A stretch of DNA of 64,000 nt from Geobacter sp. (GTDB taxonomy: Bacteria > Desulfobacterota > Desulfuromonadia > Geobacterales > DSM-12255). How positions within the stretch are numbered: the stretch's first letter is position 1; every line of letters starts with the position of its first letter. The DNA lies in assembly GCA_009684525.1 (NCBI GenBank), contig WKKR01000008.1:23386-87385 (forward strand). The letters run 5' to 3'. Shown here in pieces: positions 1,843-16,106 of the stretch. Both the position numbers and the translations under genes were made by a program. The notes beneath the pieces were generated by a model. It saw only the letters and a program-made list of their open reading frames with translations. It made no database searches and was not told where the DNA came from.

Positions 1843-1877
1843 CTGCATATCCCTGCCCTTATTTCCCGCTACACTGA
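1843..1877 (+). repeat. 35-bp direct repeat, copy 1 (CTGCATAT-N8-TTATTTCCCGCTACACTGA)
   Basis: 32/35 identical to 3856-3890. Confidence 0.8.
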
Positions 1878-1924
1878 CCCGAAATCAGGACTAGAGCCCG
1901 ACATTTCCAGGCCGATGCTTCTGA

Positions 1925-2680
1925 TTACCCCATACTCTCCACGATCCGCTCGACCGCCTCGAAATAGGCTGCAGCGTTCACCGCCATGATGGTGTTGTGA
2001 TCGCCCCGGTCGAAGATCAGCCGCTCCTTAGGCTCATGAGCCCAGTCATAGAGCCGCTCGGCATGGGAGACGTCGACGAGGTCGTCGTTTCGGGTGTGCA
2101 TGATCAGCACGCGGCCCCGGAACGCCCCGATCTTCTGCTGCTGGTTCAGGTGCCTGTCCACTGCGCTCCTGAGCGAATCCGGCGTTGCGCCGACCTGATA
2201 CGGTTCGACCCGGACCAGAATCCGTTCCAGAGGGTCTGCCAGGCCGCTTTCGACGATCAGCCCTGCCGCCTGCGGGTAGAGGGATGCGCCGTGGACAGCG
2301 TACAACGAGCCGAGCGAACGGCCGAAAAAGATGATCCGTTCCGCAGGGGCTCCGCTCGCTTCGGTTATAAGCCGGACGTCTTCAAGCATGGCGACAAGCC
2401 CCGGCTCGCCGCTCGACATGCCGTATCCCCGGTACTCGGCAAGGAGCAGGTTGGCGCCCATGGCAACGATCCGTTCCTCAAAGTCGTCGAGATAGTCGGC
2501 TACCGTTTCGCCGTTGCCATGGAAGTGGATGATGGTCGGATAGTCGTCCGAAACGTGGCGGTAACGGCAGCCGAGCCGATAGCCGGGGCCGTTTACGAAG
2601 AACGGTTCTGCGAAGCGATTGGGCCAGGGGTAGAAATAGCGGGCCGAGAGAGCGGGATGGTCAAGGATCGGGTCGGTCAT
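1925..2680 (-). CDS. Alpha/beta hydrolase (ABHD/BEM46-like)
   Basis: FHGNGE, EYRGYG, GRSLG nucleophile elbow, HTRNDD and GDHN catalytic Asp/His. Confidence 0.85.
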   Translation of the reverse strand: MTDPILDHPALSARYFYPWPNRFAEPFFVNGPGYRLGCRYRHVSDDYPTIIHFHGNGETVADYLDDFEERIVAMGANLLLAEYRGYGMSSGEPGLVAMLEDVRLITEASGAPAERIIFFGRSLGSLYAVHGASLYPQAAGLIVESGLADPLERILVRVEPYQVGATPDSLRSAVDRHLNQQQKIGAFRGRVLIMHTRNDDLVDVSHAERLYDWAHEPKERLIFDRGDHNTIMAVNAAAYFEAVERIVESMG

Positions 2681-3117
2681 GCGAGCAGCTTGAGCAGCAC
2701 CATGCCGGACTCCTCGTCAAGCTCGCGAATGGCATTCACGTCGAGTATCTCCGTGATGACCGCTTCCAGCACCAGGAAGGTCTCGCTCCCCTCGCGCAGG
2801 CAGCCCGATCTTACGCTATCCCCTTTGGCGAACGCACCGTGGAAGTGCACTTTTGGCTGGTCTCCGTGCCAGAAAACGGTTCCGAACCCTGCCGCTTCGT
2901 GGCTTTCTGCGAGTTCCCGCCAGACCGGCACCGGCGGCATCTCTTCCGACGCCGGGCCGACGACGTAGCGCCCCCTCCTGATGCCGCCGACGATGCTGAA
3001 ACAGGCCGCCCTGATCCCTTCTTTGCGGCAGATATCCGCCAGCCCGGCCAGCAGATCGTCTCCATCGTTGAAGCGGGCAATAACGATTCTGCCCGGTTTC
3101 CCTACCTGGTACTCCAT
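2677..3117 (-). CDS. PPC-domain (DUF296) protein
   Basis: RFNDGDDLL, FSIVGG, VHFHGAF, GCL...FLVLE motifs; ATGA overlap with the hydrolase. Confidence 0.85.
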   Translation of the reverse strand: MEYQVGKPGRIVIARFNDGDDLLAGLADICRKEGIRAACFSIVGGIRRGRYVVGPASEEMPPVPVWRELAESHEAAGFGTVFWHGDQPKVHFHGAFAKGDSVRSGCLREGSETFLVLEAVITEILDVNAIRELDEESGMVLLKLLA

Positions 3118-3177
3118 GGTCTGACCTCTCGCAACAGCGCCTTTCGGGCGGATATGGGGGAGGATCTTCCGATCCCG

Positions 3178-3450
3178 TTACGTGCGTCCGAACCGTTTAC
3201 TCGCTCGATCAATTGCCTTTGCCCTCTCGGTTTCCCGGTCGCGCGGCGGCGCAGCCGTGGTGAGCGAGAAGAGGAGGGTCCGCGCGGCCTCGGCTACCTG
3301 CTCGACAGCCAGGTCGAAGGCAGCCTGGTTGGCTTTTGAAGGGGTGTTGAATCCGCTGAGCTTTCGGACGAACTGCAGCGCGGAGGCGCGAATCTCTTCG
3401 TCCGTAGCCGGCGGGTCGAAGTTGAAGAGGGTCTTGATATTCCGGCACAT
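3178..3450 (-). CDS. DUF2277 family protein
   Basis: MCRNIKTLFNFDPPATDEEIRASALQFVRKLSGF signature; GGAGG RBS before the ATG at 3450. Confidence 0.85.
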   Translation of the reverse strand: MCRNIKTLFNFDPPATDEEIRASALQFVRKLSGFNTPSKANQAAFDLAVEQVAEAARTLLFSLTTAAPPRDRETERAKAIDRASKRFGRT

Positions 3451-3607
3451 GCTTCCTCCGTTCTCCACACTGCCGCAATCCGCGATTCGAGGTGCGTGTC
3501 AATTGTTGAGACCTGATAATCATATAAAAGGCACCTCCCGGCATAACGAGAAGGCAAAGACTTCCTGATATGCTGTCAAAGAGACCAATCTCTAACATCA
3601 GGAGGCG

Positions 3608-3641
3608 CCCCTTTGGTGTGTGTGACCCCTTTGGTGTGTGT
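3608..3641. repeat. Two perfect 16-bp direct repeats (CCCCTTTGGTGTGTGT), 18-bp period
   Basis: Copies at 3608-3623 and 3626-3641. Confidence 0.85.
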
Positions 3642-3682
3642 CTTCAGACGGTCACGCCATTTTACCCCGGTTTCAGGTGGGC

Positions 3683-3778
3683 CATTAGGCACTACCAACG
3701 GTGTACCGCAGGTGCCCGGCAAAATCAAGTTGCAAATCAACTGGTTATGGCATCTATAGTGTAAAGAAATTTTACACT
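3683..3778 (-). promoter_or_regulatory. Conserved ~95-bp module, copy A (palindrome + IHF consensus + sigma70-like promoter)
   Basis: About 90% identical (10 mismatches in 97 nt) to 12695-12791; AGTGTAAA-N5-TTTACACT at 3758-3778; WATCAANNNNTTR at 3735-3747; TTGATT-N17-TACACC on the minus strand. Confidence 0.8.
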
Positions 3779-3855
3779 CTGCCTGCTGCCCTGCCCGAAT
3801 CGAAACAGGGGAAGCCGGCGGAGCGCTGCCGGGCAACTCAGTCTTTCCTCGTTTC

Positions 3856-3890
3856 CTGCATATTCCCGCCATTATTTCCCGCTACACTGA
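3856..3890 (+). repeat. 35-bp direct repeat, copy 2; possibly promoter of the downstream secreted protein
   Basis: 32/35 identical to 1843-1877; contains the -10-like TACACT. Confidence 0.75.
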
Positions 3891-4001
3891 TCCCACATTA
3901 CAGTCTCGGGGTCTGCATCCCCACGGGGGACGCTTGCGTCCGGCCGGAAGAGACCTGCCCCGGACGCAGTGCCAGCACGGCCCGGCAAAAAGGAGAACGT
4001 T

Positions 4002-4295
4002 ATGGTCATACACACGATGAAGCGGTTGGGTATCTTCTGTCTGTTTGCGGCGCTGGTGCCCTGCACCGCGGTTTGGGGCGACAACACCGACATGCAGCAG
4101 AGAAGGGGAGGAGGCCACCGGAAACCGCCCCAGGAGGCATACGATGCCTGCAAAGGGAAAAACGAGGGGACAGCGGTGGAGGTCACTACCCCACGGGGCA
4201 CGATGAAGGCGGTTTGCAAATCGATGGACGGCCAGATGGTGGCCGTTCCCGAAGGTGCACCGCCGCCGCGGGACAATGCGGGCGGACAGCAGTAA
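4002..4295 (+). CDS. Small secreted protein with two Cys (PPQEAYDACKGK...C...VPE type)
   Basis: AGGAG RBS at 3991; signal-peptide-like N-terminus; motif typical of small periplasmic hypothetical proteins. Confidence 0.7.
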   Translation: MVIHTMKRLGIFCLFAALVPCTAVWGDNTDMQQRRGGGHRKPPQEAYDACKGKNEGTAVEVTTPRGTMKAVCKSMDGQMVAVPEGAPPPRDNAGGQQ

Positions 4296-4343
4296 GAGGG
4301 TCTTGTCCTGGAAAGCATGGAGGAGTCGGAAAGGGGCGGCGTC

Positions 4344-4439
4344 ATGAAGCAGCGGGTTATCGCATGTGCAGTGGTGTTGGGGGTGTCGTTGTTCCTGTTG
4401 TTCCTGGTGACCGGTCCGTTGTTCAACTACCTGCTCTGA
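4344..4439 (+). CDS. Putative 31-aa single-TM peptide (MKQRVIACAVVLGVSLFLLFLVTGPLFNYLL)
   Basis: Translated by hand; purine-rich upstream sequence; below ORF-track cutoff; in-frame ATG at 4317 is an alternative start. Confidence 0.35.
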   Translation: MKQRVIACAVVLGVSLFLLFLVTGPLFNYLL

Positions 4440-4527
4440 TACAACGCCCACAGGTTGTCTTAGGGCTTCATATCCTTCGGCGTGGGCCACCCTCGCATGG
4501 CATTACAAGGGGTATATCGTTGAACGA

Positions 4528-5223
4528 TCATTTTGCACCTATTCGTGTCAGGCGGGAGGAAATCTCGGTTTTTAGGGCCGCGAGGGCCGCAGATTTTGCT
4601 GATTTTATAATGCGCTTTTCGTCGATGAAGACAGCGGGTTTGATTTCCTTGGCAGTACCTTCGCTCTCTGCGGACAGGTAAAGGTACTGGTTGCGGACAT
4701 CCCACATCGTGGCATTTGCCATAAAAAGACCATCAGCCTCAGTGCCGGGGATGAAGAAGGGGGTAATCAACAGGAAGTAGGTATAGCCGAGGGCATTATT
4801 GTATCGGTCAATGTCGCTCACCCCGTTGACTATTAACACGGCATCCGCTCCGGCACGAGCCGCTGCAAGGCGGATAGACTGATTGTCGCTTTCCTCGACG
4901 ATCTGGCTACTGATTACGAAAACCTCCGATAGGATACCTTTGCCCTTCAATTCTGCCTCAAGCGACTGCAACGTATCTTTATCTTCACTGAGCCAGTTCC
5001 AGTTATTCCCATAACATGAACCTGTCGACGGTGATACGAAATAGATTGCGAGCGTGAATGGGGAGGGCAGTTGCGGTTTCAGTTCGAGAACTCTCTGTAT
5101 ATCTTCCTCTGTGACCCGTTGCTGGTCGGGAATCTGGCCCCGAAGATTCCCACGGTCAAAACCTCGACTTGAGGCGCATGCTGTCAACATGAGTACGAGC
5201 AAGACTGCCACTACGTTTCGCAT
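4528..5223 (-). CDS. Lipoprotein of unknown function (weak resemblance to rhombotarget-lipoprotein-like proteins)
   Basis: LTAC lipobox; GGGAG RBS; visibly lower GC than flanking genes. Confidence 0.75.
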   Translation of the reverse strand: MRNVVAVLLVLMLTACASSRGFDRGNLRGQIPDQQRVTEEDIQRVLELKPQLPSPFTLAIYFVSPSTGSCYGNNWNWLSEDKDTLQSLEAELKGKGILSEVFVISSQIVEESDNQSIRLAAARAGADAVLIVNGVSDIDRYNNALGYTYFLLITPFFIPGTEADGLFMANATMWDVRNQYLYLSAESEGTAKEIKPAVFIDEKRIIKSAKSAALAALKTEISSRLTRIGAK

Positions 5224-5324
5224 ACGATACTCCCTGATCGATGTTATCGGTCGTTCGCTGATGCCGGGCTTTCAGGTTGCCACCCGGGCAGTCCCAGTGG
5301 CAGAAAAACGAATAGGCCCATCTC

Positions 5325-5438
5325 AGCATGGTACTATCATGGGTGTATCGCATCCTATCGGCTAAATCAAGAGTTAAATCAATTGGTTATGTGGTTTTTC
5401 GTGTAAAGGAATTTTACACGTGTAAAGGAATTTTACAC
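5325..5438 (-). promoter_or_regulatory. Conserved module, copy B, with a tandem duplication of the 19-bp palindrome
   Basis: GTGTAAAGGAATTTTACAC at both 5401-5419 and 5420-5438; IHF consensus 5377-5389; TTGATT-N17-TACACC on the minus strand. Confidence 0.75.
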
Positions 5439-5449
5439 TTTTTCAACGG

Positions 5450-5485
5450 AAAGCCCCCGGTCGCTGGAGCGAACGGAGGGCTTTT
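5450..5485 (-). terminator. Probable intrinsic terminator hairpin downstream of mlaD
   Basis: AAAGCCC-CCG-TCGCT...AGCGA-CGG-GGGCTTTT imperfect stem with A/T tails. Confidence 0.55.
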
Positions 5486-5549
5486 GAGGGTAACGGACCT
5501 GGGGCGAGAGGCTGTGAAGCGCTGCCGGGCAACGATCCGCAGCTTGGGG

Positions 5550-6632
5550 CTAGAAGAGCGAGAATTTCACGTAGCGCTTGGGGTTGTCCTTGATGTCCTT
5601 CACCAGGGCGTTCATGTCGTCCATCACCCGGTTCATCTTGTCGTAGAGCTCTTTGTCGGAGATCAGTTTGCCGGCGGTTCCCTGGCCCTCCTGCAACCGC
5701 GTGGTGACAATCTCCAGCGACGTGAGCGAGGTCTCTGCCCGCTCCATCAGCGACATCCCCTTGTCGTAGAACTCCCGTTCCCCCAAAAGCTTGCCGATGG
5801 TGCCGTCGGTGGAAGTGAGCTTCTTGTTCAGCTGGCGGACGTCGTCGGCGGCCTGGTTGCTCTTGTCCGCCAGCATCACCAGCTTGTCGTAGAGCTGGCG
5901 GTCGCGGATCAGCCGCCCCATGGTGCCGTCGGCCGACTGGATGTCCTTCAGGGTGTTGTCGGCCCGGTCGAGGATGTCGATCAGTTTGTTATATGGTTCG
6001 GGGCTGCGGTTGAGCCTGCCCAGGGTCCCTTCCCCCTGGTTGACCGACTGGGCAAAGATCTTCAGCTCGCCGGTGAGCTTCACCAGGTTGTCGAACAGGA
6101 CCGGGTCCTTGGCGAAACGCCCCAGGGAGCCTTCCCCCTTGTCCACCTTGTCCATGATGCCGTTCAACCGGTCAAAGGCGGAGCCCGCCTTGGCCATGAC
6201 GTCGTCCAGCCGCGCCACCGGCGTCCCCTGGAGCACTGCCAGGGAGGTCTCGGACACGGTCATGCTCGGGGTGATATCCACGTACTTCTCACCCATCAGC
6301 CCCCGGGTCTTGATGGTGATGCGCGAGTCCTTGCCGATCTTCTTCAGCGCCTCCCGCTCCACCTCCAGGACGATCTCCACCTCGTTATTCTCCCGCGGGC
6401 GGGCAAAGTGGATCGACTGCACCAGCCCCACGTCCACTCCGGAGAGCCAGACCGGCGCACCTTCCTTGAGCCCGGCCACGTCATCCATGATGACCCGCAG
6501 CGTCCCCTTGGGGACGAAGAACTTGGTCTTTTCCCCCATGACGATGACCCCGCCGGCAAAGAAGAGCAGGGCCACCACGATGAAGATACCTCCCCGCAGC
6601 TGGGACCAGGAAATATTGTCGCTTCGCTTCAT
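5550..6632 (-). CDS. mlaD: MCE/MlaD family protein with long helical repeat tail
   Basis: N-terminal TM; GLKEGAPVWLSGVDVGLV MCE motif; ITIKTRGLMGEKYVDI; five G(S/T)xG(R/K) repeats. Confidence 0.9.
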   Translation of the reverse strand: MKRSDNISWSQLRGGIFIVVALLFFAGGVIVMGEKTKFFVPKGTLRVIMDDVAGLKEGAPVWLSGVDVGLVQSIHFARPRENNEVEIVLEVEREALKKIGKDSRITIKTRGLMGEKYVDITPSMTVSETSLAVLQGTPVARLDDVMAKAGSAFDRLNGIMDKVDKGEGSLGRFAKDPVLFDNLVKLTGELKIFAQSVNQGEGTLGRLNRSPEPYNKLIDILDRADNTLKDIQSADGTMGRLIRDRQLYDKLVMLADKSNQAADDVRQLNKKLTSTDGTIGKLLGEREFYDKGMSLMERAETSLTSLEIVTTRLQEGQGTAGKLISDKELYDKMNRVMDDMNALVKDIKDNPKRYVKFSLF

Positions 6633-6642
6633 GGCTATGCCT

Positions 6643-7488
6643 TTAGTGTTTGATCGGCCGTTGCCGGGCCAGATGCGTCACGGCCCGCTCGTGCAGGAGA
6701 GGGTCGAGGTTGGTGATCCGGTCGTTGACGAACAGCGACTGCTCCGTCGGGCTGAAGAACTCCCTGATCCCCGGATGGTCGGCGGTCCGCAGTTCCTCCT
6801 CCGAGCCGTCGAAGATCAGTTGCGTGTCGTGCAGGAACGAGAAGCGCTGGGACACGGCAAAGGCCGTGTGCAGGTCGTGTGTCACCATCAGGGTGGTCTT
6901 CCCCTGCCGTTGCAGGGTCTGCATCAGGCTCCGGATGTTGTAGATGCCGATCGGGTCAAGGCCGGTGGTCGGCTCGTCGAAAAAGATATACTCCGGGTCG
7001 GCCGCAATGGCCCTGGCAATGGCGACCCGCTTCTTCATCCCGCCGGAGAGCTCCGCCGGGTAGAGATTGATGGTCTTTTCAAGCCCGACAAAAGAGAGTT
7101 TTTCCAGCACGATCCGCTCGATCTCCTTTTCCGGGAGTTCCCCCTCCTCCAGCAGCCGGTAGCCCACGTTTTCGCCAACGGTCATGGAGTCGAACAGGGC
7201 GCCGTTCTGGAAGACGATGGCGATGTTGCGGCGAAGCCTGGAGAGCTGGCTCTCCCGCAGGCCGGCAATGGACTGGCTGTTGAGGTAGATCTCGCCGGAA
7301 TCGGGCTTCAAGAGCCCGAGCAGCAGCTTCAGGATGGTGGTCTTTCCCACCCCCGATACCCCGAGGATGGTCCGGTTTACCCCTTTTCCCAGGGACATGT
7401 CGAAGTCGGTGATGATCCTCCTTCCACCCACCGAGTAGGTGACCCGTTCCATCCGTATGCAGCTGTTCAGTTCCGTTCCGACATCCAT
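6643..7488 (-). CDS. mlaF: MlaF-type ABC ATPase
   Basis: GVSGVGKT Walker A, LSGGMKKR signature, FFDEPTTGLDP. Confidence 0.9.
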   Translation of the reverse strand: MDVGTELNSCIRMERVTYSVGGRRIITDFDMSLGKGVNRTILGVSGVGKTTILKLLLGLLKPDSGEIYLNSQSIAGLRESQLSRLRRNIAIVFQNGALFDSMTVGENVGYRLLEEGELPEKEIERIVLEKLSFVGLEKTINLYPAELSGGMKKRVAIARAIAADPEYIFFDEPTTGLDPIGIYNIRSLMQTLQRQGKTTLMVTHDLHTAFAVSQRFSFLHDTQLIFDGSEEELRTADHPGIREFFSPTEQSLFVNDRITNLDPLLHERAVTHLARQRPIKH

Positions 7489-7508
7489 TGCGTTGCCTGC
7501 CTCGCGTC

Positions 7509-8275
7509 TCAGCGGAAGACGATGAAGATCTTGGTCATGAAGAAGTCGGTCACCAGGATCAGCACCGACGAGAGCACCACGGCCCGCTTGACCGACGTGC
7601 CGACCCCTTCGGCACCGCCGCGGGTGGAGAGGCCGATGTAGCAGCTGATCATGACGATGATGAAGCCGAAGACCGCCGGTTTGACCACCCCCTCGATCAG
7701 GTCCTGGAAGACCATGAACTGGGGCAGGGACTTGTAGTACATGAGGAGGTTGATGTCGTACCCCATGGCGATCAGGTAGCCGCCTCCCAGGGCCACGGTG
7801 TCGGTGACAATGGTCAAAAGCGGCATCGCCACCAGGGTCGCCTTCAGGCGGGGCGTTACCAGGCGCTTGACCACGTCGGTCCCTTCGACCCGCATGGCAT
7901 CCACCTGCTCGGTGACCACCATGGTCCCCAGCTCTGCGGTGATGGCCGATCCGACCCGGCCCGCCACCATGAGCGACGAGAGGACCGGGCCGAGCTCCTT
8001 GATCATGGTGACCGCCACCATCCCTCCCACGTAGCTGGTGGCGGCGAACGGCCTGAGCTGGATCAGCGCCTGCAGCGCCATGACCATGCCGGTAAAGAGG
8101 CCGGTCAGGCAGATGATGAAGAGGGAGTCGACGCCGATCTTGGCAAACTGGGTGGTGAACTCGCGGTAGTAGAAGGGAGGGGTGAAGCCGCGGAGCACGG
8201 CGCGGGCCGCCAGGGCGAAGAACTCCTGGATCTGCAGCAGCGCCAGCTTAGTGGCACGGTCGAAGATCGCGACGT

Positions 8276-8279
<4 letters not shown>
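7509..8279 (-). CDS. mlaE: MlaE-type ABC permease
   Basis: ELGPVLSSLMVAGRVGSAITAELGTM..TEQVDAM; GAEGVG motif. Confidence 0.92.
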
Positions 8280-10609
<2,330 letters not shown>

Positions 10610-10632
10610 GGGCATAGTGTAAGGGTAGCGGC

Positions 10633-12588
10633 TCAGCTCGCTTCTGTCAAGGCTGCAAGCTCTTCCCACTCGGCATAAAGTGCCGCCAGCCGGGCCTCGA
10701 TGGCAGCATGCTCGCTGCCCGCCTGCTGCAGGGCCGCATAGTCGGCGGCCATCTCCGGGGCTGCCAGCCGGGCCTCCACGTCCTGCAGCGCCTTTTCCTC
10801 CTGGCCGATGGCGGCCTCCAGCTCGCCGATCCGTTTGGTCCGCGCCCGCTCTAACTTCTGGCGCTGCTTCTCCTCCTCCCGCTGACGGAGGCGATCCTCC
10901 TTGGAGAGCTCGTAGCTCGGCAGCGCGGCCTCGGCTGCGCCCGCCGTTGCAACGGGACCGCTTGCCCGCACCTCGGCAGAGGTCTGCTGGCCGGACTTCT
11001 TCGCCAGGAAGTATTCGTAATCGCCCGGATAGGAAGTGAGTCCGCCCCCTTCCACCTCCACCACCCTGGTGGCAAGCCCGTCGATGAAGTAACGGTCGTG
11101 GGAAACGAAGACCAGCGTGCCCGGAAAGGAGCGGAGCGCCTCCAGCAGCACCTCCTTGCTGAACAGGTCCAGGTGGTTGGTCGGCTCGTCCATCAGGAGC
11201 AGGTTGGCCGGCTTGAGCAGCATCCGCGCCAGGGCCAGCCGGTTCTTCTCCCCGCCGGAGAGGACGCCGACCTTCTTATTGATGTCGTCGCCGGAAAAGA
11301 GGAAGGCGCCCAGAATATCCCGCAGCTGTGGCACCATGTCGTACGGGGCGGCAGAGAGCAACTCCTCGTAGGCGCTTTTGGTCTGGTCCATGACCTGGGC
11401 CTGGTCCTGGGCGAAATAGTCGAGCGACACGTTGTGGCCGATCCGCCGCTCCCCTGCCTGGTGCGGTTCGCCGTTCAGGATCCGCATGAGCGTCGACTTG
11501 CCGGCGCCGTTATGCCCCACCAGGGCGATCCGCTCGCCGCTCTCGATGGTCAGGTCGACGTGGTCCAGCACGGTCTTCTCGCCGTAGCGCTTGACGATGC
11601 CGGCAAGCTCCATCACGATCCGGCCGCTCTTGGGCGGGGCCGGGAAACGGAAGCGGATACGTTTACGTTCCGGCGGCAGCACGATCCGCTCCACCTTCTC
11701 CAGCTGCTTGATTCGCGACTGCACCAGCGACGCCTTGTTGGCGTTGTAGCGGAAGCGGCGGATGAAATCCTCCATCGCCTCCACCTCCTCGTCCTGGCGC
11801 CGCTTTGCCTCGCGCAGCGCCGTCACCCGCTCCTCCCGCTGCACGAGATAATTGCTGTAGGAGCAGTGGTAATCGGTGAGGGTATGGTTCCAGACCTCGG
11901 TGATCCGGTGGCAGACCTGGTCGAGGAAGAAGCGGTCGTGGGAGACCAGGATCACCGAATAGGGGTAGCTGCAGAGGTACTCCTCCAGCCAGTTGCGCGC
12001 CTCGATGTCCAGGTGGTTGGTCGGTTCGTCCAGAAGGAGGATGTTGGGCTTCTGCAAGAGCAGCCGGGCCAGGGCGATCCGCATCTGCCAGCCGCCGGAG
12101 AAGTCCCCGCAATCCCGCTCCCAGTCCTGCCGGGAAAAGCCGAGGCCGCGCAGCACCGTCCCCACCTCCGCCTCCATGGCGTAGCCGCCGCGGATGCGGA
12201 ACTCCTCCTGGCGCTGGCCGTAGCGTTCCAGGATCGCCGCGTGCTCTGGGGCGTCGTGCGGCACGGTTGCCAGCCGCCCCTCCAGCTCTTTCAGCTCGGT
12301 CTCTATCTGCCGCAGGTCGGCCAGCGCCGACAGTGCCTCGTCGAACAGGCTTTTGCCCTGTGAGACGATCCCTTCCTGCGGCAGGTAGCCTACCGTCGCA
12401 CCCTTGGCAAGGCGGAGCTCGCCGGACGACGCCTCCACCTGGCCGGCGATGATCCGCATCAGGGTCGACTTGCCGGCGCCGTTCTCCCCCACCAGGCCGA
12501 CCCGCTCCCCCTTGGGCAGATGCCAGCAGATGGCGGTGAAAAGCGGTTTGGCGGCGAATTCCTTGGTCAGGTTGTCGAGCTGCAGCAT
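10633..12588 (-). CDS. ABC-F family ATPase
   Basis: Two ABC cassettes (GENGAGKS/GHNGAGKS, FSGGW/LSGGE, LLDEPTNHLD twice), no TM segments, C-terminal coiled coil. Confidence 0.93.
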   Translation of the reverse strand: MLQLDNLTKEFAAKPLFTAICWHLPKGERVGLVGENGAGKSTLMRIIAGQVEASSGELRLAKGATVGYLPQEGIVSQGKSLFDEALSALADLRQIETELKELEGRLATVPHDAPEHAAILERYGQRQEEFRIRGGYAMEAEVGTVLRGLGFSRQDWERDCGDFSGGWQMRIALARLLLQKPNILLLDEPTNHLDIEARNWLEEYLCSYPYSVILVSHDRFFLDQVCHRITEVWNHTLTDYHCSYSNYLVQREERVTALREAKRRQDEEVEAMEDFIRRFRYNANKASLVQSRIKQLEKVERIVLPPERKRIRFRFPAPPKSGRIVMELAGIVKRYGEKTVLDHVDLTIESGERIALVGHNGAGKSTLMRILNGEPHQAGERRIGHNVSLDYFAQDQAQVMDQTKSAYEELLSAAPYDMVPQLRDILGAFLFSGDDINKKVGVLSGGEKNRLALARMLLKPANLLLMDEPTNHLDLFSKEVLLEALRSFPGTLVFVSHDRYFIDGLATRVVEVEGGGLTSYPGDYEYFLAKKSGQQTSAEVRASGPVATAGAAEAALPSYELSKEDRLRQREEEKQRQKLERARTKRIGELEAAIGQEEKALQDVEARLAAPEMAADYAALQQAGSEHAAIEARLAALYAEWEELAALTEAS

Positions 12589-12694
12589 GCAATACCTCGT
12601 TGGGGATCGATAACCGCTCTATTTAGCGGCAATCAGCGTCGGATGTCAATGTTGCAGCCGCTGGACCGGCTGCTGCGGGCCGCTCAGCAGGGTA

Positions 12695-12791
12695 AGTGTA
12701 AAATTTCTTTACACTAAAAATGTTATAACCAGTTGATATGCAACTTGATTTTGCCGGGTGTCTGCGGTACACCCTTGGTAGTGCCCAATGG
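12695..12791 (+). promoter_or_regulatory. Conserved module, copy C; candidate cassette-array promoter
   Basis: AGTGTAAA-ATTTC-TTTACACT 12695-12715; IHF consensus (minus) 12726-12738; -35 TTGATT 12745-12750, 17 bp, -10 TACACC 12768-12773. Confidence 0.8.
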
Positions 12792-12800
12792 AGGATGTGC

Positions 12801-13154
12801 ATGTTGAAGGATATGAAGGCGTATGCCCATTTAAAGCCGGGTCAGGACGGGACCAAGCGGCTGGTGGAGCAATACGGCGATGCCTTGCTCTGCGTCCGTT
12901 ACCGCTTTGATGAAGTGCGCGGCGTGAAGCTGAAGACGGTTGAGATCATCGTCGACGAAAAGCCGCTGCAGTCCCCGCGCTTCAAGCATGATGACCTGGT
13001 GCCGGTTCGCGTTGCTTATGACGAGGTGGAGCTGCGGCAGCAGTTGCGCGCCATGCGGGGGCGATGGGATGCGGAAAGGAAGTTGTGGTACGTCCGATAT
13101 GGATTGATCCGCGGTACTCCGCTGGAAGAGCGGCTTGCGGAGCTGTACGAATAG
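12801..13154 (+). CDS. Hypothetical 117-aa protein (KPGQxGTKRL..QYG..L.CVRYR motif; C-terminal RWDAERKLWYV resembling DUF5710)
   Basis: GGAGG RBS at 12790; host-like GC; domain resemblance is from recall only. Confidence 0.8.
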   Translation: MLKDMKAYAHLKPGQDGTKRLVEQYGDALLCVRYRFDEVRGVKLKTVEIIVDEKPLQSPRFKHDDLVPVRVAYDEVELRQQLRAMRGRWDAERKLWYVRYGLIRGTPLEERLAELYE

Positions 13155-13161
13155 CTGCGAG

Positions 13162-13240
13162 ATTACCGATATAAGTAACTTAGAAGATTACTTATATCGA
13201 TAATAAATTACCTATATTGGTAATAAATTACTTATATCGT
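13162..13240. repeat. Array of ~20-bp AT-rich repeats (three direct, one inverted) upstream of the attI-like core
   Basis: ATTACTTATATCGATAATAA 13187, ATTACCTATATTGGTAATAA 13207, ATTACTTATATCG 13227; inverted copy ATTACCGATATAAGTAA 13162. Confidence 0.85.
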
Positions 13241-13247
13241 GAAACTT

Positions 13248-13265
13248 GCTAATAACTAGTTGTCC
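13248..13265 (+). other. attI-like recombination core (GCTAATAACTA/GTTGTCC)
   Basis: TAAC...GTT simple-site layout; GTTGTCCG is complementary (7/8) to the R'' CGGCCAAC of the first attC. Confidence 0.65.
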
Positions 13266-13273
13266 GAGGAAAT

Positions 13274-13834
13274 ATGAATAGAGAAGATTTTCAGGATCGG
13301 TTTTCGAGTGCGACAGATTCGGCTGTCTCTTTTGCGCGGAGCTATGTCTTAAACGAGTTGCCAAACCAAAGAGTATTCCTGATTTTTCCAAATCAGTCCT
13401 TCGATGGCAATCCCCTTGAAGCTGACGAGGAAACCTATCCGAGTGACACTCAAATCGATGACAAACCAATTGTTTTTGCGACGGCTGAGGCCGTCGTTGA
13501 TTATCTCTGGAGAGACTTCAAGGTTCCAGAGTGGATCGACGTAAGTGTTGGAGGAGCAGACGGTGAGCGCACGTATATTCACCTTCTATGCTGTGGCCGA
13601 TTTACTGCAACTAGCGAGTTACTGTACCACCGCGATGGAGGCGTTTCCCCATTTTCTGTCAAGAGCCCAATCCTTCCACCAGGCTACGATGACGCTGCAG
13701 AAGCTGATACTCAGAAATTCGATGTAAATTGGCGAGAAAAGGCAAAGAAGGAATTTCAAGAAAATCAAAAAAACGAGGGCGGATTGCTTCATCGTCTACT
13801 GCACTCGACGCAATCATTATTCCGAAGCCAGTGA
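13274..13834 (+). CDS. Cassette 1 hypothetical protein (VPEWIDVSV...LLCCGRF motif)
   Basis: 186-aa ORF with GAGG RBS immediately after the GTT core; low GC. Confidence 0.8.
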   Translation: MNREDFQDRFSSATDSAVSFARSYVLNELPNQRVFLIFPNQSFDGNPLEADEETYPSDTQIDDKPIVFATAEAVVDYLWRDFKVPEWIDVSVGGADGERTYIHLLCCGRFTATSELLYHRDGGVSPFSVKSPILPPGYDDAAEADTQKFDVNWREKAKKEFQENQKNEGGLLHRLLHSTQSLFRSQ

Positions 13835-13846
13835 ATGAGAAGAAAA

Positions 13847-13901
13847 CGGCCAACCATCGGCAAGACCCGCCGAGGGCGGGTCAGCCTCACCACCGTTATG
13901 C
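13847..13901 (+). other. attC site 1
   Basis: CGGCCAAC ... GGC-AA-GACCCGCC-GAG-GGCGGGTC-A-GCC hairpin ... GTTATGC. Confidence 0.75.
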
Positions 13902-13926
13902 AGCAAGAAAATTAAGGGATAATCTA

Positions 13927-14367
13927 ATGACTGAACTCGACGAAAAATATGAATGCCTCAGAAAAACTTACGCAGACGGCAATCTGGATAAATTGTCTAT
14001 AGAACAGTTGAAAGATTATCACTCAATGGTAATGACACACGGAAACCGAAACCAACTAAACCAAGACACCTATAATCATTTAATCAATGAAATTAGCAAC
14101 ATAAAAAGACATAAGGAAACCCAAGAGAAACTTAAAGAACTTAAAAAGCCGCATTGGACAGTAAACCCTACTTTTTGGGTCAGTCTTATTGCAATGACAG
14201 CCGCCTGTATTGCAGCGTTTTTCACTGTTTTCCCTCGATCTTCTCAACCCGCAAACGGAGGTCAGAAATTTCTTGGGACAAAACAGACCGTTCAAAGTGT
14301 TGCCGCCGATTTACAACAGCAGTTATCAAGTTCACAACAAGTATCAAACAAAGAAAAGCAAAAGTAG
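13927..14367 (+). CDS. Cassette 2 ORF a: hypothetical protein with one TM helix and a Q/S-rich tail
   Basis: ATG at 13927 after AAGGGA; KPHWTVNPTFWVSLIAMTAACIAAFF TM segment; very AT-rich. Confidence 0.65.
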   Translation: MTELDEKYECLRKTYADGNLDKLSIEQLKDYHSMVMTHGNRNQLNQDTYNHLINEISNIKRHKETQEKLKELKKPHWTVNPTFWVSLIAMTAACIAAFFTVFPRSSQPANGGQKFLGTKQTVQSVAADLQQQLSSSQQVSNKEKQK

Positions 14368-14404
14368 CAATAGCATAGTGTCTGTCTGAAGATGAAAATT
14401 TCAT
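14222..14404 (-). CDS. Possible antisense 60-aa TM/coiled-coil peptide
   Basis: AGGAGG 4 nt before ATG; YAIATFAFLCLILVVNLITAVV hydrophobic stretch; overlaps the 3' tail of 13927-14367. Confidence 0.35.
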   Translation of the reverse strand: MKFSSSDRHYAIATFAFLCLILVVNLITAVVNRRQHFERSVLSQEISDLRLRVEKIEGKQ

Positions 14405-14454
14405 AAAACCTCCTACATGTCCTAACAAAATTCGATCCTAGAAACGAGGTAAAC

Positions 14455-14871
14455 ATGAAAAACCATCAGCTATTAATTGCCATTTCGTCATTTCTTGTGC
14501 TGACTATTGCGACACCTCTTCTAGCGGCTGACGGATGGTATTTGCTTGTCCCACCGAGAAGTAAGTACGATAAAAATGCCGAATACTTGAGCGGATACAA
14601 AATATTAGACAGTAAACCGTTATCTCAGTGGCATCAGCAGGGCGCGTATGACTCTGCTTCTGAATGCGAAGATGTGAAACATAATCTGACCATGATTGAG
14701 CAAAATACTTATTCCAAGACATCTGAAAATTATATTGACGCAGTTCGTTCCGAGAAATCGAAAGCTGTGTTGGAGTTCCAACGCGCCAGTGTAGAGGCAT
14801 TAAACGCCAATGTTTTTGCTTTTATGGCAAGTCGTTGCATTAAAAGTAGCGACCCAAGATTAAAACAGTAG
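14455..14871 (+). CDS. Cassette 2 ORF b: secreted hypothetical protein
   Basis: GAGG RBS; signal peptide ending LLA-AD; two Cys. Confidence 0.75.
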   Translation: MKNHQLLIAISSFLVLTIATPLLAADGWYLLVPPRSKYDKNAEYLSGYKILDSKPLSQWHQQGAYDSASECEDVKHNLTMIEQNTYSKTSENYIDAVRSEKSKAVLEFQRASVEALNANVFAFMASRCIKSSDPRLKQ

Positions 14872-14880
14872 ACCGGGATG

Positions 14881-14953
14881 CCATCCAGAAAGATGCACTC
14901 AGTCGGACGCGGAAGAAGCCCCGCGCCGCTGGTGATTTCCCGGCCCGTTGTGT
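14881..14953 (+). other. attC site 2 (degenerate R'' box)
   Basis: AT-G-CAC-T-CAG-T-CGG-A-CGCGG pairs with CCGCG-CCG-CTG-GTG-AT with unpaired bases; ends CCCGGCCCGTTGTG identical to attC 3; no AAC at R''. Confidence 0.7.
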
Positions 14954-14969
14954 GAATAAAAGGAAAACT

Positions 14970-15467
14970 ATGCCCAAAACTAAGCATGACGACATAGTCG
15001 ATTATTGGTCGGAGCACCAAGATGAATGCGGATTGAGCGTCGATTGGGCAGAAGCGCATGAGCGTTGTTGGAGATGCGGCTATAAAAGCAAGCTCGAACG
15101 TTGCCACATTATTCCAGATTCAATGGCTGGGCCTGATGAACCGTCAAATCTTGTGCTCCTTTGTCATCGCTGCCATAGAGAAGCACCAAACGTGAAGGAC
15201 CCAAGATTCATGTGGATTTGGATTCGTGCATACGGAACGTCATTTTACGATACGTTCTGGACTCTCCGCGGAATGGAAGAATTTGAAAAGATGTTCAAAC
15301 GCAAGCCATTTGCCGAATTTGAAGCAAGAAATATTTCACAGGAAGTAATCAGAGCGGCAATGTTTGAAGCAATGCAGTCAGCAACTATTCATTTTGGCGA
15401 GGGGAGGATGAATCCTTCCACAATTGCTTGCGTTCTTTATCAAGTTGAAGAAAAGCTCCTCAAATAA
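14970..15467 (+). CDS. Cassette 3: HNH endonuclease
   Basis: CWRCG...ERCHIIP...NLVLLCHRCH zinc-finger HNH motif; AAGGA RBS. Confidence 0.85.
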   Translation: MPKTKHDDIVDYWSEHQDECGLSVDWAEAHERCWRCGYKSKLERCHIIPDSMAGPDEPSNLVLLCHRCHREAPNVKDPRFMWIWIRAYGTSFYDTFWTLRGMEEFEKMFKRKPFAEFEARNISQEVIRAAMFEAMQSATIHFGEGRMNPSTIACVLYQVEEKLLK

Positions 15468-15468
15468 G

Positions 15469-15543
15469 CACACAACCAGGCCCTTGGACGCCGACCGGGG
15501 CTGAGAAGCGCCCCGGTGCGGGTCATGGCCCGGCCCGTTGTGC
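15469..15543 (+). other. attC site 3
   Basis: R'' CACACAAC is the exact reverse complement of the cassette start GTTGTGTG (14947-14954); inner stem ACCGGGGC/GCCCCGGT; ends GTTGTGC. Confidence 0.85.
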
Positions 15544-15557
15544 TTAGAAAGTGAAAT

Positions 15558-16028
15558 ATGACTCCAATTCAAGAGGCAATTACCGGCAAAGAAGACCTGG
15601 GGCAGTTGAATTCTCCATTCCTTGCACTGGCCCAGTTTTATCGCGCCTTCAATGCACGCGATATGGATATGATGTCCGAGAATTGGGCTCAGTCGGACGA
15701 CATCTCCATGGATAACCCGCTTGGCGGCATCAAACGCGGCTGGGATGAGATACGAGCCGTCTATGAACGTATTTTTCATGGAGCTGCAGAAGTCTCTGTG
15801 GAGTATTATGATTACACCATCCACGAGACAGCTGAGATGTTTTATGCCGTGGGAAGGGAGCGGGGGTATTTTCGCCTGGGCGGCACTGAGATTAAACTCG
15901 CCATTCGTACCAGCCGTATTTTCAGAAAAGCGGAAGGTCGCTGGCGGCAGGTACACCATCATGGCTCAATCGAAGACCCGCATCTGTTGGCACACTATCA
16001 ATCCGCCGTAATGGGCAGTACATCGTAA
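15558..16028 (+). CDS. Cassette 4: SnoaL-like / NTF2-fold protein
   Basis: FYRAFNARDMDMM..NW, NPLGGIKRGWDEI, IRTSRIF....G.WRQVHHHGS. Confidence 0.85.
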   Translation: MTPIQEAITGKEDLGQLNSPFLALAQFYRAFNARDMDMMSENWAQSDDISMDNPLGGIKRGWDEIRAVYERIFHGAAEVSVEYYDYTIHETAEMFYAVGRERGYFRLGGTEIKLAIRTSRIFRKAEGRWRQVHHHGSIEDPHLLAHYQSAVMGSTS

Positions 16029-16106
16029 CTCGCCTTACCATCGGGTGGCGCGGAAATTCCATACTACCTCAAGTCAAAAGCCCCAGACTGAAAGCGAACT
16101 ATCCGG

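Follow-up and report, generated by a model that had tools for sequence, protein, structure and literature searches.

What is the short block of DNA that recurs, palindrome first, along the stretch of Geobacter sp. sequence analyzed here, a window of 64,000 nucleotides (contig C9:23386-87385) from a genome of 4.2 Mb, referred to as G000? A preliminary description, made from the sequence alone, had noted three copies of a module consisting of a palindrome, a match to the consensus of integration host factor (IHF) and a promoter-like pair of hexamers, and had proposed a portable expression or recombination module for acquired genes, possibly the region between an integron integrase gene (intI) and its attI site that had become detached from the integrase. 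To place the module, we used a set of 41 genomes of the order, G000 and 40 relatives, among them G001, a genome of the same genus whose assembly is 81% complete. The first half of the proposal, a portable expression module, held up, while recombination and the detached intI-attI region did not. The repeat is a real, lineage-specific operator-plus-promoter unit copied ahead of mostly acquired genes. Our explanation as a whole, to which we assign a probability of about 0.6, is that of a lineage-specific cis-regulatory module whose operator belongs to a dispersed regulon and whose binder is probably the regulator of a 'geopeptide' gene cluster. Taken by itself, the statement that the repeat is a transcription-regulatory module with a protein operator is very probably correct.

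Anatomy of the module copies

The three copies were confirmed at their places, two on the minus strand and one on the plus strand, and two further copies lie just outside the window, bringing the total to five copies, 75-86% alike, within 16 kb of contig C9:

3682-3797, minus strand: module A (palindrome 3759-3777; IHF-consensus match 3735-3747; -35-like TTGATT 3728-3723; -10-like TACACC 3705-3700)
5330-5439, minus strand: module B (abutting palindromes 5401-5419 and 5420-5438; IHF-consensus match 5377-5389; -35-like hexamer 5370-5365; -10-like hexamer 5347-5342)
12676-12791, plus strand: module C (palindrome 12696-12714; ATAAC 12725-12729; IHF-consensus match 12726-12738; TTGATT 12745-12750; TACACC 12768-12773)
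12790-12794, plus strand: ribosome-binding site GGAGG on the 3' side of module C, followed by the ATG at 12801
C9:20698-20818 and C9:22110-22231, both minus strand: modules D and E, 1-3 kb upstream of the window

The reverse complement of module A differs from module C at 10 of 96 aligned positions, which agrees with the ten differences reported earlier, and the homology between the two is longer than had been claimed, reaching 116 nt (3682-3797 versus 12676-12791) with 16 mismatches. For modules B and C, the count is 22 mismatches in 90 positions. As described, A, B and C each contain the palindrome, an exact WATCAANNNNTTR match and TTGATT-N17-TACACC. The window holds four exact palindromes, compared to 0.0 in 200 shuffles, and three matches to TTGATT-N17-TACACC, compared to 0 expected; exact WATCAANNNNTTR matches also number three, all in modules A, B and C, where chance would give 0.5. 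Two abutting palindromes are present in B and D and a single one in A, C and E; those of module B are arranged head to tail and begin right after the terminator of the mla operon. When a covariance model of the entire module, using sequence only, was run against the 41 genomes, full-length matches were confined to G000 (five copies, all of them within C9:20.7-36.2 kb) and G001 (two copies), and the remaining genomes matched in the palindrome part only.

Alignment of these seven copies revealed a fixed geometry. The palindrome arms, GTGTAAA-N5-TTTACAC, are invariant and the loops variable; (A/G)TAAC follows approximately 10 nt past the palindrome, TTGATTT(TGCC) 29-30 nt after it and, a further 17 nt on, TA(C/A)AC(C/A). 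A G-TA-AC at fixed spacing is also shared. The divergence of the spacers between conserved motifs, first remarked on three copies, was upheld with all seven, and in the orthologous pair E/F the substitutions (4/4) all fall outside the conserved motifs. Direct repeats at 11-bp spacing, TTGATTT and GGTA/GATA twice each, occur in A-C and are not kept in D and E. The stretch between the operator and the -35-like hexamer is AT-rich, with the conserved ATAAC, and is IHF-like in A-C: the IHF consensus is matched exactly in A, B and C only, with one mismatch in copy D, and copy E has no match. As the copies are related by descent, the matches in A-C represent one event, not three.

Since the far side of modules B and D is the terminator of a convergent or preceding gene, leaving nothing there to transcribe, the module points from the palindrome toward the gene. 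Its copies end at ribosome-binding sites, as promoters do, and the -35/-10-like pair begins only 30 and 54 nt past the operator. Given this fixed spacing, the centre of the operator would be found at about -75 from the inferred start. The chances that the TTGATT/TACACC pair is a promoter appear to us evenly balanced. From the sequence we infer that a sigma factor may read this pair, that binding at the operator may activate transcription and that IHF may bend the intervening DNA. A module would then comprise one or two copies of a 19-bp operator and the -35/-10-like pair, and its five copies in 16 kb would drive five transcription units, mostly of strain-specific or low-GC genes. The consensus sequences of sigma-28, sigma-32 and sigma-S, compared with the pair by eye and without a formal test, did not fit.

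The operator beyond the window and its candidate regulator

The palindrome recurs across the genome and in other genera. In G000, GTGTAAA-N5-TTTACAC is found 16 times exactly and 35 times with up to two mismatches, of which about 32 sites make up approximately 17 convincing loci; there, sites are frequently abutting (18-19 bp) or 57 or 68 bp apart; the operator would accordingly be that of a dispersed regulon. Eight of the 41 genomes contain the exact palindrome, while the reversed pattern, our control in all genomes, was found 0 times in every one. A relaxed form, YGTAAA-N5-TTTACR, is present in 11-36 copies in G000, G001, G007, G012, G022, G035, G036 and G040, with most others at control level. 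The genes adjoining the G000 sites encode an NtrC-type regulator, a P4-type integrase, an RHS protein, Cas3 (divergent), a DUF2726 protein, a GNAT protein, a methyl-accepting chemotaxis protein (MCP), a PhzF-like protein, a histidine kinase and a response regulator. The operator therefore precedes ordinary as well as acquired genes, an outcome that the preliminary description had itself named as refuting and that counts here against the recombination or intI-attI reading. The DNA flanking the sites has a slightly reduced GC content (p = 0.03).

In another genus the palindrome has the role of an enhancer. Pairs of palindromes with a spacing of 69 bp are accompanied in G012 and G007 by a third half-site, TGTAAAAAAACCTGCACCCC, and then by a canonical sigma-54 promoter, TGGCAC-N5-xxGC. 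The distance from the pair to this promoter is 85-107 nt, in most cases 96-98 nt, and the arrangement occurs at 10 of 12 loci in G012 and at 4 of 4 in G007, an approximately ten-fold enrichment. Since the sigma-54 promoters stand at a fixed 96-98 nt, the palindrome is the site of an enhancer-binding protein (EBP) in these genomes. The promoters head genes for secreted proteins, a subtilase, an RHS/Tc-like protein, and response regulators of the HD-GYP and AraC types. G012 also encodes an 87%-identical homologue of the 117-aa protein whose gene follows module C, and there the gene stands behind two palindromes and a sigma-54 promoter; the 117-aa gene is thus under this operator in two genera, via different promoters. 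The G012 and G007 loci (L036-L047, L071-L074) form a genus-specific composite module of ~200 nt with at least 14 copies.

Across genera, one gene set recurs beside triple sites. It encodes an NtrC-type response regulator, a histidine kinase, a periplasmic protein (ABC_sub_bind), a TonB-dependent receptor and a radical-SAM enzyme, the last of which matches TIGR04280, 'geopeptide radical SAM maturase', with 644 bits and has a 37-aa Cys-Cys precursor open reading frame (ORF) ahead of it. The geopeptide cluster is present in 13 of 13 relatives examined, and triple sites flank it in G000 (twice), G001, G036, G040, G012, G025 and G013. In G000 the cluster (C1:198339-206265; L023, L024; precursor ORF MIQDNGEIEVLDKGINLAEEDSIGGCCWALFAVVILG) is bracketed by two triple-palindrome arrays with 57-bp spacing. 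We propose that its response regulator, P0001, an NtrC-type protein with GAFTGA and HTH_8, would be the binder of the operator; it is encoded together with the maturase, precursor peptide, TonB receptor, binding protein and kinase of the cluster:

C1:198776-200233: candidate regulator gene, NtrC-type

The recognition helix and the operator co-vary. Ten genomes with the helix (S/T)RPTLxK(K/R)L have the operator (T/C)GTAAA-N5-TTTAC(A/G). In G003 the helix is TRQTFRKRL, and three TGGTAA-N5-TTACCA sites are found at the equivalent place (L150:152-309) and nowhere else in that genome; in G027 the helix is CRQTVKRKL, and two ATGTTA-N7-TAACAT sites (L151:7727-7873) lie upstream of its EBP. As the operator changes with the recognition helix of the geopeptide-cluster regulator, this protein is the likely binder, and we rate the assignment, which draws on adjacency and on co-variation over few independent events, at slightly better than even: good evidence but not proof. 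No other regulator gene consistently adjoins operator sites. In a tree of the regulators, that of G000 groups with those of G040 and G036, which belong to another family (support 97/97), and not with those of its congeners G002, G003 and G005. Two other candidate binders were considered and set aside: the 117-aa protein, whose gene many genomes possess together with intI and without palindromes, and a TyrR-like regulator, none of which is encoded in G000.

Some of the G000 operator sites have features of their own. At C6:271972-272030, two abutting palindromes stand 130 nt upstream of the divergent cas3, an arrangement kept in G001 (L056), and the element adjoining them resembles the ATAAC..TTGAT stretch of the module (GGCAAATCAGCCAGTTAC). 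A near-identical stretch of ~450 nt adjoins palindromes at C1:1208595-1209050, C3:191161-191600 and G001 L062; in this stretch, a terminator-like hairpin abuts the palindrome and a moderate sigma-54-like match lies 177-178 nt from it. In all, three or four G000 sites outside the module copies show moderate sigma-54-like matches, 157-178 nt away, one of them before the regulator's own gene, and matches of this kind are only suggestive.

Several observations weigh against the explanation that we favour. With every register checked, no GG-N10-GC (-24/-12) promoter was found in or after any of the five G000 copies, and since the ATG of the gene behind module C is 87 nt past the palindrome, there is no room for one. 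The -10-like hexamers TACACC, TACACA and TAAACA lack the T at -7 in 7 of 7 copies, the combination of any of them with TTGATT-N17 departs from the sigma-70 pattern (TTGACA and TATAAT 16-18 nt apart, A at -11, T at -7), and a scan with the canonical sigma-70 consensus found no site in 3000-13400. At the other operator sites the IHF match is not enriched beyond the low-GC background, its apparent excess there being explained by AT-richness. The candidate regulator has an intact GAFTGA, and an activator of sigma-54 promoters would not be expected to act on the sigma-70-like one inferred here; because all 27 of the 27 EBP-like ORFs of G000 keep a GAFTGA-like motif, no sigma-70 activator like TyrR or PhhR is in sight. 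Lastly, the congeners G002, G003 and G005 keep the geopeptide cluster without the regulon, and the identification of the binder consequently rests on adjacency and few-event co-variation.

A rival explanation is that the palindrome in G000 would be bound by a different transcription factor that acts on sigma-70-type promoters, as a repressor or activator of acquired genes, with the geopeptide cluster merely one of its targets. Such a factor would agree with the missing -24/-12 promoter in the window modules, with the cluster-bearing congeners that have no regulon and with the mildly low GC of the site flanks; moreover, in G040 and G036, whose EBPs are the closest to that of G000, the palindromes likewise have no canonical sigma-54 promoter on their 3' side. 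It does not, however, account for an operator that changes with the recognition helix of the cluster EBP in G003 and G027, nor for the fixed sigma-54 spacing in G012 and G007, which shows EBP binding there, and no second regulator gene keeps company with the sites. We therefore regard a different factor as unlikely, although it deserves serious consideration, and retain the geopeptide-cluster regulator as the candidate.

Genes behind the modules and readings as mobile DNA

The genes at and around the modules of the window are as follows:

1925-2680: hydrolase gene, with the next entry one of the next real genes past module A
2677-3117: PCC gene
4528-5223, minus strand: 231-aa lipoprotein gene behind module B (GC 0.51; no Pfam or NCBIfam family)
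5550-12588, minus strand: core operon of ABC-F, Lon, MlaE, MlaF and MlaD, between modules B and C
12801-13154, plus strand: 117-aa gene headed by module C
13160-16030, plus strand: low-GC (0.45) run of small co-oriented genes with attC-like hairpins between them, transcriptionally downstream of module C

Modules B and C bracket the core operon and point outward, in agreement with the preliminary description, and the targets that it had named for these two, the low-GC lipoprotein gene and the cassette array, were found as well. For module A there is no convincing gene directly 3', as the 129-aa ORF at 3209-3598 looks non-coding. The genes behind modules have a GC content of 0.45-0.56 versus 0.61 for the contig. 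Within DNA that is 90-95% identical between the sister genomes, module D and two genes (1.76 kb) are replaced in G001 by an unrelated segment of 0.66 kb. It is this swapped module-plus-gene unit, together with the five copies in 16 kb, the low-GC or strain-specific genes behind them and the insertion around module C described below, that bears out a portable expression module.

The variable slot itself (C9:19188-20950 in G000, L059:2102-2764 in G001) holds module D, a gene for a TRL-like lipoprotein and one for a 281-aa outer-membrane-like protein in G000, and another lipoprotein gene, without a module, in G001. The B-like copy of G001 is 88% identical to module B and lies at a non-syntenic position, which calls for caution given the incomplete assembly.

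The core operon is syntenic in G002, G003, G004, G005, G007 and G025, all of which lack the module, and in G007 ABC-F begins 350 nt from the gene for RNase E/G. Relative to the congeners, the DNA from module C through the 117-aa gene to the cassettes is therefore an insertion at a variable spot. The gap between ABC-F and EVE/RNase E-G (window 12589-16106) varies in the genus, with 3.5 kb of integron-like DNA in G000; elsewhere (L153:10057-12189, L154:10604-12064, L157:8679-9028) it is occupied by a 624-aa ORF in G002 and a 395-aa ORF in G005, and measures the 350 nt of G007.

No integron integrase was found in the whole genome of G000, where the best score on TIGR02249 was 84 bits against a cut-off of 265; true intI is present in 22 of 41 relatives. 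Homologues of the 117-aa gene are divergent from and adjoin intI in 9 of 12 Geobacterales intI loci, and their upstream regions are mostly unrelated. With an intI-neighbour gene, attC-like hairpins and no intI, the array in the window is thus an integrase-less platform (CALIN), and the 117-aa gene that module C heads belongs to a family of integron platforms. Module C would drive both this gene and the cassette array. The 117-aa family (loci L101-L103, L111-L119) has several copies per genome, many contigs break just 3' of the gene, and at three loci of an Ignavibacteriales metagenome-assembled genome a homologue stands directly after an intI-like gene.

The position of module C, at the head of an attC-like array and before a gene that neighbours intI in relatives, would suit a recombination site, be it the detached intI-attI region or the target of another recombinase, as would the variation of module-plus-gene units between the sister genomes; the doubled palindrome of module B would then be the scar of an insertion or excision. 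We consider this very improbable. The palindrome was absent from 12 intI loci of relatives, 9 of which carry the 117-aa gene, and module C gave no blastn-short match in them. An attI site would be restricted to cassette arrays, whereas four of the five copies head non-cassette genes and the palindrome occurs at 17 loci of G000, ordinary genes included, and precedes sigma-54 promoters in G012 and G007. No GTTRRRY core was found at the module borders. Because abutting tandem palindromes recur at many loci in four genomes, the duplication in module B is a normal operator arrangement rather than a scar.

Little, too, speaks for a composite mobile element, or one resembling a miniature inverted-repeat transposable element, that carries ABC-F-lon-mla and has A and C as its terminal inverted repeats. 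The two are indeed inverted, 86% complementary over 116 nt and 8.9 kb apart, but the operon that they enclose is core and syntenic in six relatives without the module, which rules out a composite transposon. Copy B, co-oriented, falls within the interval and D and E fall beyond it; the annotated ORFs include no transposase, there is no target-site duplication, and the copies end at ribosome-binding sites. Given the lack of an integrase, the absence of the module beside intI and the core, syntenic nature of the B-C operon, the readings as recombination site, attI or transposon fail.

That the conserved block acts as a transcribed RNA, its hairpin serving as a leader, small RNA or attenuator, is the least credible of all, for although the palindrome can fold into an 8-pair hairpin and neither module A nor the B-like copy of G001 has an obvious ORF directly 3', no Rfam family matches anywhere in the window, the only plausible start site is located 3' of the hairpin, and elsewhere this palindrome stands upstream of sigma-54 promoters. 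In addition, the loop varies but seven pairs of the stem do not, and not one compensatory change was seen; a stem that never co-varies is in keeping with a DNA operator rather than an RNA structure.

Near module A, a 43-nt direct repeat, 86% identical, is found at window positions 1843-1885 and 3856-3898 (CTGCATAT..CCGC..TTATTTCCCGCTACACTGA), one copy upstream of a small secreted-protein gene (4002-4295) and the other between GGDEF and hydrolase genes. The window contains no tRNA genes.

Significance and comparison with known systems

The module is a case of a regulon that expands into acquired DNA through copying of the whole operator-promoter unit, and it makes expression of an integrase-less cassette array from a regulated rather than a constitutive promoter likely enough to consider. 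One operator would serve sigma-54 promoters in one genus and promoters of a different type in a second. The analysis also supplies a concrete operator and a candidate regulator for a two-component system linked to a ribosomally synthesized and post-translationally modified peptide, which exists only as a database family, and it removes the tempting but wrong idea that the repeat might be a novel element for recombination. More tentatively, and as a doubtful extension of our proposal, the operator could mark a geopeptide regulon, in which a peptide-sensing circuit would have spread its operator before acquired competition, defence and mobile-DNA genes in a patchy subset of Geobacterales, and the operator would have been re-coupled, in the species group of G000, from sigma-54 to another promoter class. 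The genes concerned may include those for RHS-family proteins, a subtilase, Cas3 and a P4-type integrase, as well as the integrase-less cassette array, whose expression would, if this is true, be signal-dependent.

In the literature, nothing relevant was found on the palindrome or on 'geopeptide'/TIGR04280, and neither the multicopy motifs of G. metallireducens (classes 1-4) nor the operator of HgtR gave a match. Among known systems, an integron platform (intI, Pc/Pint, attI and cassettes) or CALIN resembles the locus in that module C takes the position of Pc, heading co-oriented attC-bounded cassettes, and in that the gene behind it is a neighbour of intI in relatives; it differs in the missing intI, in the absence of the module beside intI in relatives and in the four other copies, which head non-cassette genes.

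The likeness of the palindrome to a TyrR box, with N5 in place of N6, had been pointed out in the preliminary description, and N5 was seen at all of the >100 sites. TyrR/PhhR boxes, TGTAAA-N6-TTTACA, are the targets of NtrC-family proteins acting on sigma-70 promoters, and IHF is a co-activator at P. putida phhA. The module shares with them the half-sites TGTAAA/TTTACA, adjacent boxes, and a sigma-70-like promoter downstream with an IHF-like site between; unlike TyrR/PhhR systems, it has the N5 spacer throughout and no regulator without the sigma-54 contact motif.

By inference, quorum-sensing regulons with lux-type boxes are a further parallel. There, too, a short dyad operator is dispersed before accessory, secreted and competition genes, which here include those for RHS-family proteins, a subtilase, Cas3 and an integrase, and here it is tied to a modified-peptide cluster with a receptor, kinase and regulator set. 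The regulator family and the operator are, in contrast, unrelated to LuxR, and any signal role of the geopeptide, or response of the regulon to it, would be hypothetical.

The remaining comparison is with sigma-54 enhancer modules of the NtrC/NifA type, in which upstream activating sequences, an IHF bend and a -24/-12 promoter follow one another. The five G000 copies differ from these in having, in place of the -24 GG/-12 GC promoter expected ~70-200 nt downstream, the -35/-10-like pair 30 and 54 nt after the operator. Upstream activators bind dyad sites, usually two or more, and the two palindromes of B and D and the single ones of A, C and E are counted here as agreeing with that pattern. 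The resemblance extends to the dyad-symmetric sites of 17-19 bp in tandem or triple arrays, the AT-rich, IHF-like stretch between site and promoter, and the gene for a candidate cognate NtrC-type response regulator beside what would be autoregulatory sites; in G012 and G007, it includes the canonical -24/-12 promoters themselves, at their fixed distance from the palindromes.

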